Below, one piece after another: positions 1 through 4,157 of a DNA stretch of 30,359 nucleotides. The position numbers and the translations under genes were made by a program. Every line of letters begins with the position of its first letter. The first letter of the stretch is position 1. The notes beneath the pieces were generated by a model, which saw nothing but the letters and a program-made list of their open reading frames with translations, was not told the DNA's origin and ran no database searches. Source of the stretch: an uncultured Ruficoccus sp. Its GTDB lineage: Bacteria > Verrucomicrobiota > Verrucomicrobiia > Opitutales > Cerasicoccaceae. The stretch covers positions 1 through 30,359 of the forward strand of contig OZ223520.1 in assembly GCA_965140785.1 (NCBI GenBank), in the 5' to 3' direction.

Positions 1-610
1 ACGGGAGCAAAAGCGGTATCCAGGCTGCCGTCCGTGTTCAAGAGCGCGACCGAAGGACGAGCCGTACCGTTCACCGTCGTGAAATTCCCGGCGACATACA
101 CCTTGCCATCGTCTTGCCAGGACCAGGCGCTTGCACATAGCGCACGGATGCGCCCCCCACCCCCGCCACAGCGAAGCTGGTGTCCAGCGACAAGTCCGCA
201 TTCAGACGCAGCACGCAGGCCCGGGAGGTCCCGTCATAAGAATCAAATACACCGCCCACGAGGATCTTTCCGTCCGGCTGAACGACGATGCTGTTGATTT
301 CCGGAGAGCCCCGTCGTCGTCGCAAAGCCGTCAATAATGTCGGCGACCGTACCGTCGGCATTGAGACGCCACATGGCCGAGCTGCCCCCCCCCTGGTAGC
401 TGCCATAAGTGCCCCCCACCAACAGGCTGCCGTCGCTCTCAAGGGCGACCGCGTTGAGCGGCTCGGCAAAGCCAGTTCCGACCTCCACCATAAAACCGGC
501 GTCGAGGTCATCCGGAGCTGCATAAACACTCCCGGTAATGATGAAAGCCAGCACAAAGGCCGGCGCTAATTTATTTAATCAAGCGTCGGCAGTGATTGGT
601 AGTTTCGCAT
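1..610 (-). pseudogene. Secreted delta-60 repeat (DUF5122-like) beta-propeller protein, 5' part, frameshifted; continues beyond window
   Basis: Repeats read across frames: NAVALESDGSLLVGG, NSIVVQPDGKILVGG..RLNADLSLDTSF, LQDDGKVYVAGNF..LLNTDGSLDTAF. Hydrophobic signal-like N-terminus. Frame breaks near 580, 300 and 115-130; these may be sequencing indels. Confidence 0.8.
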
Positions 611-960
611 AACCGATTAGTGATCGATCCAATGGAGTTACAGGAGGCTGTACCGTCGAACACAGTCTGAAAAACACTAATCGTACTAATCAGCCCAGTT
701 AATAATGACTAAATTACGTCATATGCATGGATATAAAAAGTCCTTATCCCCGGCGCGGGTTAAATTAGGCAACACCATTTCCCGCAAGACATAAGGCTAT
801 TGCGCCCTAGTTGATCCCTATATCTCCTACCTATATCAAGCCAAAAGATCCCATTAATTCTTGAGGTATATACTTCATAAAATCAGGTCCGCTTTGCGCA
901 CCAACCTGCCCTTCTCTCCTCAGTCGCCCCCTGTCTGAGTCCCACGTTTTGGTCCGGATG

Positions 961-1950
961 TTATGAGAGATTTCCGGTCTGGTGGTTGTGTTGTTGGTTT
1001 GTTTGTTTTTGGAGGTTCTGGCGTAGAGAGGCCGTAGGCCGAACGGAGCCGGAACCTGAGTTTAGTTGTTTGGCAAACTGGGTCGGGTTGTGAGCAAGCC
1101 CAGAGAGCGATGAGGGCGTTCGTTGTTGTAGTAGCTGCGCCAATCATTAAAGACGACGCGTGATTCGCTGAGGGTGTAGAGCAGTTCACGATCCAGGCAC
1201 TCCTGCCTGAAGCGGCTGTTGAAGGACTCGACGTAGCCGGGCGGGCTGGTCGCACCGTCCGCCATTGTGCCAGGGGCAACCCGGATCAATGTAGAGGGTC
1301 TTGATCTGATTGTCGGCCAGCCAGCGCTTGATCGGTCTGGCGATAAACTCGGGCCCGTTATCGGAGCGGATATACGCGGGAACTCCGTGGGTGGTGATCG
1401 CCTGCTTGAGCACGGCGAGCACATCATCGGCCTTGATGGAGCGATCCGCATGGATGCAATGACACTCACGCGTAAACTCATCAATGAGGTTAAAACAGCG
1501 CAGGGCGCCGCCACGCTGAGTATGGTCGGAGACTACCGAGCGCGAAGCGCGACATGATCACAAGAAAACAAGTCCGCAGGCCCAGACGTGGTTACGGGGC
1601 GTGGCCTGCTGCGGCAATCCTGTCGACAAGCCCTGACGACGTGTGCGTGGTTTAGGAGCAGGCACTTGCAGGCCCTCCTGCCGACGTACGCGTTGCACCA
1701 GTTTCTTGCCCACATTCCAACCGGCCTCGCGAAGCTTGCGCGTGATCTTGCGATAGCCCAAGGTCGGATGACGCTGGCTCATCTTCACGATCTCGGCTTC
1801 CAGCAGCCGCTTCTTCTCGGGTAGCGGCTTGGGTTGGTAACGATAGGTTGAGCGATGAATGCCCAGCCACCGGCACACTTGTCTCCCGGAGCACCGAAGC
1901 GCGGCGACGACCTTGGCGGCCGCCCCGCGCTGGTGATCCGGGCTCAGGCG
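961..1950 (-). pseudogene. IS3 transposase OrfB (DDE integrase core), disrupted
   Basis: GYRKITRKLR, NHVWAC, IDEFTREC, IRSDNGPEF, GYVESFNSRFRQECL and YNNERPH lie in different frames. Insertions at about 1534-1569 and 1239-1263; frameshift near 1090. Confidence 0.9.
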
Positions 1951-2235
1951 TTTTTTTCCAACGCAATCTCAAGGGCTTTGGTCTTGAGCAAATGGTCGGC
2001 AAGCAGCTTCTTTAGCTCGGAGTGTCAGGCCTTCTCGCTACGCTCGTGAACTCCTTCTCCAAGTCCCGTAGCCGCTGTGCCTCCTTCACATCCAACCCCC
2101 CCATACTGGCGCTTGTAGCGATGGTACGTCGCCGGGCTGATACCGTGCTCGCGGCAGGCATCCTCGACGTTTAGACCTTCGCTCGCTGCGAAGGATGCGG
2201 ATGATCTCTTCGGTGCTTCGTCTTCCTCGTTTCAT
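1944..2235 (-). pseudogene. IS3 transposase OrfA (HTH), disrupted
   Basis: MKRGRRSTEEIIRIL..NVEDACREHGISPATYHRYKRQYGG..SELKKLLADH..LEKNA* read across frames. Confidence 0.88.
1950..1959 (-). promoter_or_regulatory. Probable -1 programmed frameshift site of IS3 (GGAAAAAAAC)
   Basis: A7 run at the OrfA end/OrfB start overlap, the usual IS3 arrangement. Confidence 0.65.
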
Positions 2236-2304
2236 ACTCGATTATCTGTCATTTGACAGAAAATCATCTCATCAGCAATGGACCAATTTCGGGAGGCTCA
2301 GACA

Positions 2305-3046
2305 AAGTCCTCGTGGTTTTGGCTACGTGTTGGATTTTTCTGATGCAACAATGGAGGAATTCTTTCTGGAAGAATTTGGAGTTGAAATCTATTCAGAGGA
2401 AAACCAAGTCAATGGAAATTCGAAGAGAAATTGCTTAACAACATTCCTTCGGCGGACGGATCAAAACACTGCTCTTAATGTTTTGCGAGCATTGTGGGAG
2501 CGTCGTGAAGGACTGTTAGATTCTCATCCTCATTCTCAGGAGACTCAGGAAGCCCGATCCAAATCTAAACCATTTCAGCAGGTTATCGAACAGCTCCAGA
2601 GCGATCCCACATTGGTAACGACTGCTGGGGTAGAGAAATTCTCACATGACCGCACACTGGATGAGCTTGTTTCGGATATTGAAAGAACCCTTTGTGCGAA
2701 TAAGCCGGAGGTGGCTATAGATCACTTACATACTTATTGTGTAAAAAAAATCACACACTTGCTTGAAATCCGTAGCATAAAATGCTCCCAAGACGAACCG
2801 CTACACTCACGATTTGGAAAGTATAGGAAATGTTTGGAAAGTGAGCAGAATTTACATGACTTCACGACCCGCGCCCTGAAGTCGTTCATTAGTCTACTGG
2901 AAAGCTTCAATGATGTTAGAAACAATCATTCGCTTGCCCACAATAACGTGATTCTGGACCCAATAGAGGCAAGATTCATCTTCAGCAGTGTGAGCGCAAT
3001 GCTTGTTATGCTCCGCGCCCTGGAATCAACACGATATGGAGAATAA
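2305..3046 (+). CDS. Abortive infection family protein (AbiJ-like N-terminus, Abi_C/HEPN-like C-terminus), 5' end cut by IS3
   Basis: GYVLDFSD..EFF..EFGVEIY..GNSK N-terminal motif; C-terminal FNDVRNNHSLAH (R-x6-H, HEPN-like). Lower GC than neighbours. The called ORF 2195-3046 begins inside the IS. Confidence 0.75.
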
Positions 3047-3106
3047 TAGAGCCAGTAGAGCTAAAACCCGAAATACTGAATTGTGTAATGTCTAAAACCT
3101 GTCCCC

Positions 3107-3344
3107 GGTTAACGCTCAGTTAAAGCCAGTTAAAGGCAAAAACGGGGGATTTGAGTCGTATTGAGGGGTATTCGGACAGGGCTTCTGTCGCAAATTAAGG
3201 CGTTACTATTACGCAAGTTGCGCAATAGTAGCCATTTAGGACAAATAAAAATTGGAGGTGGCGGGACGCGGACTCGAATCCATAAGTCGCTGACTACCAG
3301 CACACAGCGATTTAGTCCATTTACCAGTTAAGGCTCAGTTAAGG
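3107..3344. repeat. CAGTTAA direct-repeat clusters flanking the tRNA remnant (integrase arm-like sites)
   Basis: GGTTAACGCTCAGTTAAAGCCAGTTAAAGG (3107-3136) and CAGTTAAGGCTCAGTTAAGG (3325-3344), with 10-11 bp period. Confidence 0.6.
3257..3278 (-). other. tRNA 3'-end remnant (T-loop to acceptor), probable att core
   Basis: Minus strand TTCGAGT CCGCG TCCCGCC A CC fits T-loop, T-stem 3' strand, acceptor 3' strand and discriminator. No 5' half present. Confidence 0.6.
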
Positions 3345-3541
3345 TCATTGAGTCGCACGCAGTCGCATTGACGCGCATCGCCAATGACTTGGGCGTACCA
3401 TCAGTCCTTTCGTTTGCGGGTTGGAGGGCGAAATCATAGGCCCATGATTTTGCCGGTTCAGGGCATATGAGCCGTTGGGAAAGGAGTCACCCGAGCATCG
3501 AACTCGGGCATTTTTTGAAGAAAAGTGACTATCGGGAAAGC

Positions 3542-4060
3542 TCATGCGGCCCACCCCTCCTCTTCCTCAATTTTCGGTAATGGCTCGCGATAGGTGTGAT
3601 TCAGGAGCCCACCGAGGTGTGCGATTTTTCGGATCGGACCCTGATTGCGAGAGGCTTCCACGTCCGGCTCAATGATCTGGTTGTCACGGCCCTGATGCGG
3701 CCTTTCATGGTGGTAATGTAGCACGTATTCGCTGATGGCTTTCCGTAAGGCTGCCTCGCTGAAGAAAATCATCTTGTCCAGGCATGGGCGCTTCGCTTTG
3801 TCGCCGCTTCGCAGGCTCGGTACACGCTTGATCGATTTGACGAAGCACTCGGCGTAGCCGTTCATCATCGGCATGCACACAGGCAGCCTGAAAGGGGTTG
3901 TGCCACTGCTACGCAACAACTCACGGAACGCATTTGTAAAGAGAGTATCCCGGTCATGCAGCAGGTACTTCTTTCCGGTCAGGAATCCTTCGAACGCATC
4001 CGTCAGGTTCCAGGCAATTTGGAGTATTCCACTGGCCGGAGTATTGGCGACCAATGTGCG
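3542..4060 (-). pseudogene. Integrase-core (rve-type DDE) transposase, C-terminal fragment
   Basis: YLLHDRD, NGYAECFVKSIK..CLD, YHHERPHQG and LGGLL motifs. N-terminal HTH half missing; in-frame 13-aa insert in place of the expected Glu of KRECL. Confidence 0.85.
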
Positions 4061-4157
4061 TGATTTCCAGGCAGGGTAACACCCCGTAGCGCAGTCCTGT
4101 CTTTCTCGGTACACTGATAACCGGTAGCCGATAACAGGCTTTTAGAAAGTTAATACT

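Follow-up and report, generated by a model that had tools for sequence, protein, structure and literature searches.

The window analysed here is a stretch of 30,359 nucleotides from an uncultured Ruficoccus sp. of the Opitutales (assembly GCA_965140785.1, contig OZ223520.1), and near its start lie two unrelated insertion sequences (IS) whose transposase genes are interrupted by four very short inserts, referred to below as micro-inserts. The first carrier is an IS3-family copy of 1373 nt with orfA and orfB on the minus strand (932..2304), bounded by inverted repeats at 932-945 and 2291-2304. Its domains and ends fit the definition of the IS3 family (OrfA with HTH_Tnp_1, OrfB with HTH_21 and rve, and TG...CA inverted repeats); the fragments present in the window match HTH_21 and rve in Pfam. 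This copy is broken by three micro-inserts, of types B, A4 and A6, and by single-base indels. The second carrier is a 5'-truncated copy of a single-ORF insertion sequence with an rve-type (rve_3) transposase, also on the minus strand (3253..4069), which was recognised by blastn to an intact copy elsewhere in the same genome (C26:80595-82118) and by a Pfam match to rve_3. Compared with that intact copy it holds a micro-insert of type A1 and also a 141-nt deletion and a 1-nt insertion.

The type A1 micro-insert (3785..3822, minus strand) is 38 nt long and replaces AG for a net gain of 36 nt. It lies sense to the rve gene and in frame, in K-R^E^C-L (carets mark the borders of an insert), 11 codons past the Glu of the Y-A-E motif, and consists of TACCGA, a bulged hairpin (GCC-T-GC-GAA-GC-GGC), GACA and the tail AAGCGAAGCGCCCA; reading through it turns K-R-E-C-L into KR-VPSLRSGDKAKRP-CL. 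Type A4 (1534..1570, plus strand; 37 nt, net +35) is antisense to IS3 orfB and sits immediately behind the Asp in W-A-W-D^F; it consists of TACCGA, the hairpin GCGC-GAA-GCGC, GACA and a 16-nt tail. The initial annotation, made from the window alone, had described a net gain of 36 nt that interrupts K-R-E-C-L in the rve transposase and a plus-strand, antisense insert that breaks IS3 OrfB; both are borne out by alignment, with the full extents given here. The motif that it proposed as common to the two, TACCGAGC-N0-2-GCGAAGC-N0-1-GCGACA, has exactly two matches in the window, at 1534-1554 (+) and 3799-3822 (-), and was matched by none of 100 dinucleotide-preserving shuffles. Two further inserts in the IS3 copy had been overlooked. 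One, of type B (1239..1263, minus strand), is 25 nt long with the hairpin GGCGGAC...GCCCGCC and lies at N^G-Y-V-E, just before the catalytic Glu motif. The other, of type A6 (2023..2050, minus strand; 28 nt, net +26), lies in orfA at L-E-K-E^, holds a GCGTAGC mini-hairpin and has GACA as its 3' end.

The alignments took in every copy of the two IS families that was found in the genome from which the window comes (G000; 4.36 Mb in 50 contigs labelled C4, C10, C26 and so on, 59% G+C, the window contig being C49). Among these paralogues every class of insert is represented by both filled and empty sites. The A1 site is filled in five rve copies (C49, C26a, C26c, C4b and C4d) and empty in two full-length copies with intact ORFs, C26b (C26:80661-81785) and C4a (C4:131235-132470), the empty site reading ...AAGCGTG^AG^TGCCTG... 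(K-R-E-C-L). A4 is filled in four IS3 copies (C49, two in C25, and C48) and empty in the paralogues on C10 and C26, at GGGACT^TC^GTCTCC (W-D-F-V-S). The type B insert of the window IS3 is missing from the C10, C48 and C26 paralogues, and its A6 insert from the C26 paralogue. Among public proteins, 22 homologues of the rve protein were found and 18 were aligned, all 18 of which lack the 12 extra residues and keep K-x-E-C/A-L. The filled/empty test was carried into sequencing runs, where it rests on assembled contigs. A 4029-nt contig from a wastewater metagenome (X3) spans window 1033-2305 with 26 other letters (~98% identical) and lacks all three IS3 inserts, leaving out 25 nt at 1236 (type B) and 23+3 nt at A6; in contigs from two other runs (X1 and X4) position 3784 is linked to 3823 through CT alone, the form of the empty rve site. 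Because paralogues, an IS3 contig of ~98% identity and 18 of 18 protein homologues are without them, the window inserts are true insertions and not ancestral sequence. Three outcomes that the initial annotation had named as fatal to its proposal failed to appear: the motif is not limited to two sites, its family having more than 40 copies; intact homologues do not carry the added residues; and both filled and empty forms turn up in independent contigs. The estimated completeness of the assembly is 90.85%, its homopolymer differences (7 G versus 6 G) may be errors, and identical IS copies are possibly collapsed or missing in it, so that an intact helper IS3 is possible.

The micro-inserts range in size from 25 to 50 nt. 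Type-A members begin with 5' TACCGA, followed by a variable hairpin and GACA; in all but A6 there follows a tail of 14-19 nt, ending in CA and usually with a GCGNAGC motif. Other IS copies of G000 hold the further forms A2 (TACCGA + ACTGAGGC-GNA-GCCTCGGT + GACA + AAGCGNAGCGCCCA), A3 (TACCGA + GCC-T-GTGCC-loop-GGCAC-GGC + GACA + CTCAAGCGAAGCGAAGACA) and A5 (TACCGAGGAGCGTAGCGACGACA + tail), as well as U23, a 23-nt insert just upstream of the rve start codon. Between TACCGA and GACA, which are constant, there are at least six different stems with full pairing, namely GCCC/GGGC, GCGC/GCGC, GCCG/CGGC, ACTGAGGC/GCCTCGGT, GCC-T-GC/GC-GGC and GCC-T-GTGCC/GGCAC-GGC. The closing pair changes from G-C to A-T in step with its partner (GC..GC to AC..GT), and many type-A loops are GNA. 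According to a published account, GCGNAGC is a 'mini-hairpin' DNA motif with a melting temperature of 70-76 degrees C (PMC13037366), in agreement with the earlier description of GCGAAGC as an unusually stable mini-hairpin.

Seven comparisons of filled with empty sites yielded a junction rule. Type A extends from TA to CA in place of two target bases (AG, AA or GA), the preceding base being mostly G. The empty sites are G^AG^TGCC in rve K-R-E-C-L and in IS3 R-Q-E-C-L, G^AG^TGYC in IS3 F-T-R-E-C, G^AG^AATC in rve L-V-E-E-N, TGG^AA^GTAT in W-K-Y-N-N, GAC^GA^AGTC for A4 (element strand) and GGAG^AA^CGC for A6. Across these filled/empty comparisons the type-A junctions had no target duplication and no terminal inverted repeats, the two ends being TACCGA... 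and ...CCCA, ...GACA or ...AACA. Type B adds 24-25 nt in front of GGCTACG, with GGC or CGGC on both sides. When 5' flanks were pooled (CGTG, CGGG, GACG, GAGG, CTGG, AGAC, GGAG and others), only the G was common to them.

Searched with regular expressions for A, A6, B and U23, G000 yielded 48 matches. IS3/rve-like DNA, defined by similarity to four representative IS3/rve proteins, amounts to 38,207 bp in 44 regions, or 0.88% of the genome, and contains 41 of the 48 matches, which are all of the bona fide ones; the seven outside lack a hairpin or tail and seem to have matched the loose patterns by chance. About seven more variants came from alignments only (four A5, two A3 variants and a second C4 copy near 241.6 kb), all within IS copies. 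A relaxed scan, with one mismatch allowed and a hairpin required, gave 24 matches, 20 of them in IS DNA, while three reversed-motif controls gave 0, 1 and 1. The inserts in G000 are restricted almost only to DNA of IS3/rve-type transposases. One of the four relaxed-scan matches outside IS DNA, at C47:28089, is intergenic, has AACCGAGCC...GGCGACACTCAGCAAGCGA architecture and could be a type-A relative in a decayed state. In total the inserts occupy at least 15 site-by-lineage combinations. By our own arithmetic, random placement would put 15 combinations in IS DNA with a probability of 0.0088^15 (~1e-31), a figure that counts sites as independent and assumes that recurrence in diverged lineages is not inheritance; the identities of elements relative to their flanks support this assumption, though they do not prove it. 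Of the proposal in the initial annotation that the repeat accumulates in, or targets and silences, transposase genes, the restriction stands, with 41 of 41 bona fide matches in 0.88% of the genome, whereas active targeting and silencing are interpretations of it. IS copies and remnants are themselves clustered in this genome, nested or abutting, at C4 131-185 kb, C26 80-180 kb and C48 100-104 kb.

Particular subtypes recur at particular codons in carriers that are only ~65-67% identical. A6 occurs at K-E^ in the window IS3 family and at K-E^N in a relative of a second IS3-family lineage, IS-HC, with 28/28 identity; A4 occurs at D^F in both IS3-family lineages with 35/37 identity; and A2 occurs at T-R^E^C in both. 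A3 is found at D/Q^E^C-L in several IS lineages, and related type B inserts are found at the same N^G-Y codon in IS3 and in the unrelated rve IS (C26a, C26c, C4b and C4d). The same subtypes also occupy non-homologous sites, A2 at L-V-E^E^N besides F-T-R^E^C, and A3 at W-K-R^E^L-G besides R-D^E^C-L-N. Given these non-homologous sites, and given the intergenic relatives and those resembling MITEs (miniature transposable elements with inverted repeats) in other Opitutales described below, simple inheritance cannot explain the distribution.

IS-HC (C10:74248-75567 and 10 other loci) is apparently an active lineage; its 11 copies are 98.3-100% identical with at most one gap each, and none of the 11 has a micro-insert. 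A diverged relative of it at C48:102800-104200 has five micro-inserts plus deletions. Another relative, at C48:101077-102238, is without a 54-nt stretch of orfA. Several deletions in G000 are bounded by a hybrid element that has its 5' flank from one site and its 3' flank from another (C26:99297, C26:178767, C10:469905 and the A5 junction on C48), which argues that the elements recombine with each other and erode their carriers.

The filled rve copies bear on the age of the inserts. Compared with the intact rve copy, C26a has no indels beyond three inserts (41, 25 and 36 nt) and is free of stops over 357 codons, and C26c has three inserts (41, 24 and 36 nt) and one single-base insertion. With the inserts projected out, these two filled copies differ by 0.43 substitutions per synonymous site (dS) and 0.034 per nonsynonymous site (dN), a dN/dS of 0.079; for the two empty copies dN/dS is 0.073. 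Filled rve copies do not group as a clade by dS. The inserts of C26a and C26c differ by 0/41, 1-2/38 and one indel, compared with ~10% in the flanks, and because these differences are so small the inserts appear to be much younger than the divergence of the carrier copies, the alternative being strong constraint on the inserts. Judged from the same alignments, they are the first lesions of otherwise intact filled copies that had been under selection. In the filled rve copies at C26:132560-133830 and C26:163870-165140 the added bases come to 102 in each case (41+25+36 and 41+24+36+1), which is divisible by three, probably by coincidence, because the sequence from one insert to the next is out of frame and a stop comes with A2.

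A scan of relatives covering 41 genomes gave 20 matches in G000 itself and 0-3 in the others, at the level of a reversed-pattern control, with one exception. The exception, G035, had 53 matches, of which 52 have one core (51 identical and one with a single-base change). All 18 loci fetched from it (19 copies; L013-L030) lie inside a conserved repeat of ~361 nt with the core TACCGAGCCCGCAGGGCGACA in its middle; a second hairpin upstream varies in sequence while its pairing is kept. In another species (G003) two of three matches are clearly real, an A2 at the same rve site and an A3-like insert at F-H-N-R-L-Q-D^E^C-L, and an intact rve IS copy is present too, 96% identical and without stops. The rve protein of the window IS had no match in G001, G002, G004 and G035. 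Among 185,579 genomes, one per species, the A1/A2 tail pattern was found at 0 loci outside G000, and an A3-like pattern was found at 87 loci. Among the 31 of these 87 that were inspected, eight have the hairpin architecture, all from metagenome-assembled genomes (MAGs) of Opitutales type; most other listed loci are from one Opitutales MAG. Four of the eight (L034, L047, L055 and L078) lie in a Pelagicoccus MAG, in the left arm of an inverted-repeat element of ~250 nt that resembles a MITE or a doublet of repetitive extragenic palindromic (REP) sequences forming a hairpin (REPIN), and the right arm of that element looks like the uninterrupted (empty) site. An Opitutaceae MAG, a Puniceicoccaceae MAG and another Opitutales MAG have one copy each, all intergenic, and the eighth copy is from a further MAG of the Opitutales set. 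A scan of metagenomes for the A3 pattern found one locus, which is intergenic. By these loci the element family extends across the order Opitutales and is not confined to IS DNA, restriction to transposases being a feature of G000 and G003. Presence and absence at many non-homologous sites and in several Opitutales genomes support the earlier suggestion of a mobile repeat.

The alignments demonstrate insertion status, anatomy, restriction to transposase DNA, same-site recurrence and youth relative to the IS carriers, and with modest confidence we explain these by REP-like non-autonomous micro-elements that preferentially hit and disable IS3/rve transposase genes. The elements would form a family of 25-50 nt built around a short G+C-rich hairpin, often with a GNA triloop. 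They would integrate at the DNA level, type A as a unit from TA to CA that replaces two target bases without duplication, and would land almost only in IS3/rve-type transposase genes, at a limited number of preferred positions matching conserved codons. Each insertion would frameshift the transposase, stop it or add a loop to it and so disable the IS copy, and two elements within one IS could later recombine and delete the intervening DNA. A trans-acting enzyme that recognises the single-stranded hairpin presumably moves them. The preference may be real targeting, in which case multicopy, dispensable and horizontally travelling genes would offer a 'safe haven'. Insertion of a single-stranded-hairpin element at the DNA level is favoured because a folded single strand is what the GNA loops and the covarying stems suggest, because the element is found in either orientation to genes and in non-coding DNA, because type A destroys a conserved Glu codon beyond repair by removal at the RNA level, and because it is the clean lineages that multiply. 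The strict recurrence at codons could reflect subtype-specific recognition, hot spots due to IS biology (a cis-acting transposase or transposition intermediates) or microhomology-assisted copying between IS copies. A bolder version, which we regard as doubtful and offer tentatively, would have a new class of ultra-small mobile elements home to conserved IS3/rve codons in a subtype-specific manner, possibly nucleic-acid-guided via the hairpin or tail, either as hyperparasites of IS or as an anti-transposon device exploited by the host, with an insertion chemistry that has not been described.

Several results weigh against REP-like mobile elements as the explanation. No mobilising gene was found when Y1_Tnp and RVT_1 were profiled in G000, G001-G003 and G035. 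The co-occurring Y1/HUH or reverse-transcriptase (RT) genes that the initial annotation had suggested do not track the element: G003 has the element and no Y1, G002 has four Y1 genes and no element, and G035 has no RT. G000 has two 99%-identical units of ~1 kb (C10:480126-481052 and C43:224705-225631), each with a 309-aa Y1/HUH (IS200-like) protein, and these units are flanked by ~30-nt inverted repeats, GAAGGGGTCA...AATAATTTAAAT, that bear no relation to types A and B. No insertion was observed to arise de novo. The junction rule, with two bases replaced, no duplication and no inverted repeats, fits no characterised transposition chemistry, and the near-absence of a pooled target consensus (G^RR) sits badly with exact codon recurrence. 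DNA nearest-neighbour folding of four inserts (two of them on both strands) was no better than that of shuffles (z -1.16 to +1.21) under a model that may miss GNA-triloop bonuses; the claim of structure rests on covariation, since folding energies do not separate inserts from shuffles. The IS copies are recombination mosaics, with 0-2 versus 15-18 differences per 60 nt within one pair, and some inserts may have spread by gene conversion between IS copies. Finally, two IS3 copies on C25 are 99.5-99.7% identical to the window IS3 with different flanks, and the three copies, at different loci, have the same three inserts in common, a pattern that requires a dead IS to have been mobilised in trans or the inserts to have spread between copies afterwards. 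Stray repeats of a local CRISPR array were also considered as a source and rejected, since a crude genome scan found no arrays. No convincing complementarity was seen by eye between the subtype-specific parts and the target flanks.

Dedicated mobility would be unnecessary if a few old accidental insertions had been copied between IS copies and families, whether through gene conversion or through template switching guided by microhomology at conserved motifs. The IS copies are indeed clear mosaics, the elements recombine with each other, and the R-E-C-type sites have ...G^AG^TGCC... in common. We nevertheless judge this unlikely, as the same subtype stands at unrelated sites and in intergenic and MITE contexts of other genomes, flanks diverge within 7-12 nt of identical inserts, and the A6 flanks in two IS families are alike over only ~6 contiguous bases. 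Alternatively, the IS3/rve transposases themselves might move the micro-elements, preferentially in cis, and land them in their own gene by auto-integration. It is true that every carrier is rve-type, that the elements end in ...CA-3' (the A3 end AGACA being like the window IS3 end ...CAGACA) and that, in a string comparison, the 5' TACCGAGCCT resembles the IS3 left end TGTCTGAGCCT. DDE strand transfer, however, makes target duplications, and here none is seen, two bases having been lost; intergenic relatives stand far from any IS, and G035 has 52 copies yet no match to the window rve protein, all of which makes auto-integration quite improbable.

An anti-transposon defence, in which the host encodes a system that silences active IS by writing hairpin cassettes into transposase genes, would fit the IS-only distribution in G000, the position of inserts at or beside catalytic motifs and their standing as first lesions of otherwise intact copies. 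It is made very unlikely by the most active IS lineage (11 copies), which is untouched, by relatives in intergenic DNA and MITEs elsewhere, and by the search for a candidate gene, which found none. The dN/dS of 0.08 with no stop between two filled copies, the three near-identical filled IS3 copies at different loci and the in-frame GGC codon on both sides of type B could each suggest that filled IS still function, the inserts being intron-like or bypass elements that are removed from mRNA or hopped by ribosomes. We consider that highly improbable: type A destroys a conserved Glu codon that removal cannot restore, A4 is antisense to its gene while others are sense, A2 brings an in-frame TGA, the insert classes are unrelated in sequence, the proliferating lineages are the clean ones, and the same elements occur in non-coding DNA elsewhere. 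As for chance similarity or assembly artefact, single-base homopolymer differences (7 G versus 6 G; the C runs in window 1-560) do suggest sequencing noise, but this reading is refuted by the shuffles (0/100), the paralogue alignments, the same inserts in several contigs, the G003 copies and the run contigs, and its probability is close to nil.

Other features of the window surround the two carriers. An ORF on the plus strand between the two IS remnants (2195-3046) has an Abi_C (abortive infection C-terminus) domain (E 6.6e-09) and may be a defence gene in an IS-rich patch. Positions 1-560 hold overlapping broken ORFs in repeat-rich, beta-propeller-like sequence with long C runs at ~385-395, which reflect either a decayed gene or homopolymer errors of the assembly. 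No tRNA gene was found at 2900-3600.

Little is known of how bacteria and insertion sequences reach a truce. In the copies compared here, the first lesion to kill an IS repeatedly appears to be a 25-50-nt hairpin insert at a codon of the catalytic core and not random mutation, and the inserts then promote internal deletions. If the targeting is real, it would add a new layer of parasitism or control acting on transposons, and a mechanism able to place ~40 nt at chosen positions without target duplication. For genome annotation, such inserts split transposase ORFs into pieces that resemble unrelated fragments.

Literature searches, whose coverage left subscription journals largely outside, returned no report of micro-inserts confined to transposase genes. 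Known classes of small element were compared with the inserts. They are not MITEs, since type A has no terminal inverted repeats and no target duplication and only type B is flanked by GGC/CGGC on both sides. They do not match palindrome-associated transposable elements (PATEs) derived from IS200/IS605, as they have no fixed tetra- or pentanucleotide on the 5' side (only G is common) and one main hairpin in place of a subterminal pair. Rfam gave no match at E <= 0.1 for the window and three G035 loci, so that no covariance model of an RNA family (ribozymes, introns, small RNAs) applied. Bypass cassettes, as in phage T4 gene 60 and the 'byps' of Magnusiomyces mitochondria, are mobile hairpin inserts of 27-55 nt in coding sequence; for bypass the take-off and landing codons have to match, take-off is usually followed by a stop or a rare codon, and the hop restores the protein. 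The micro-inserts do not qualify as such gene 60/byp elements: type A takes the place of the Glu codon and lacks a pair of matching codons, and type B has GGC...GGC with no stop after take-off. The small dispersed repeats (SDRs) of 21-27 nt that Elhai et al. reportedly described from Nostoc in 2008 are said to be apparently mobile, to have hairpin potential, to be often nested in other repeats and to have no known mobilising enzyme; they differ from the micro-inserts in phylum and sequence, and we know of no report that they are restricted to transposase genes.

REP and REPIN sequences with their REP-associated tyrosine transposase (RAYT) resemble the micro-inserts in having a hairpin, a conserved single-stranded flank and covarying stems, and single-stranded mobilisation is plausible for both. 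The covariation of the palindrome stem that characterises REPs is present here, with at least six distinct, fully paired stems; the GTAG tag is missing. REPs and REPINs are mainly extragenic, with hundreds of copies, whereas G000 has ~48 copies, every one of them in transposase DNA, and one intergenic relic that is doubtful. Another feature of REP systems is a RAYT gene with the same repeats on its flanks; the two 309-aa Y1_Tnp genes of G000 instead have unlike inverted repeats of ~30 nt. Closest in form are the GTAG- and CGTC-tagged intragenic repeats of the REP and Rickettsia palindromic element (RPE) kind described by Di Nocera et al. 2013, who found Opitutus terrae to have the most intragenic GTAG repeats (PMC3733652). 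In the same paper, the CGTC repeats have TGTC as a variant tag, a CCA-like tail and no dedicated transposase, and the published intragenic REPs are in frame in housekeeping genes, with neither 'transposase' nor 'integrase' in supplement file 3, which has 70 occurrences of 'terrae' (PMC3733652). Both kinds are hairpin repeats of 20-40 nt with an unpaired tag and tail that can lie inside coding regions, and the reverse strand of type A, TGTC-hairpin-TCGGTA, begins with the listed TGTC variant of the CGTC tag, although its stems start with GCC and not with A/T pairs and its tail is TCGGTA and not CCA. Measured against what is described there, the micro-inserts are found only in transposase genes, are mostly frame-breaking, occupy the same codon across IS families and replace two bases, and their stem composition and tag differ from those of the published intragenic families. 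Opitutus terrae belongs to the same order as this genome.

A different parallel is provided by elements of the IS1111/IS110 group, which insert into conserved sequences of mobile elements (Tn21-family ends, attC sites and REPs) without target duplication and are autonomous, 1.2-1.5 kb in length, with a DEDD recombinase. The micro-inserts are 25-50 nt long and have no gene, yet the two are alike in using a conserved sequence of another mobile element as a safe and widely travelling target and in leaving no target duplication.

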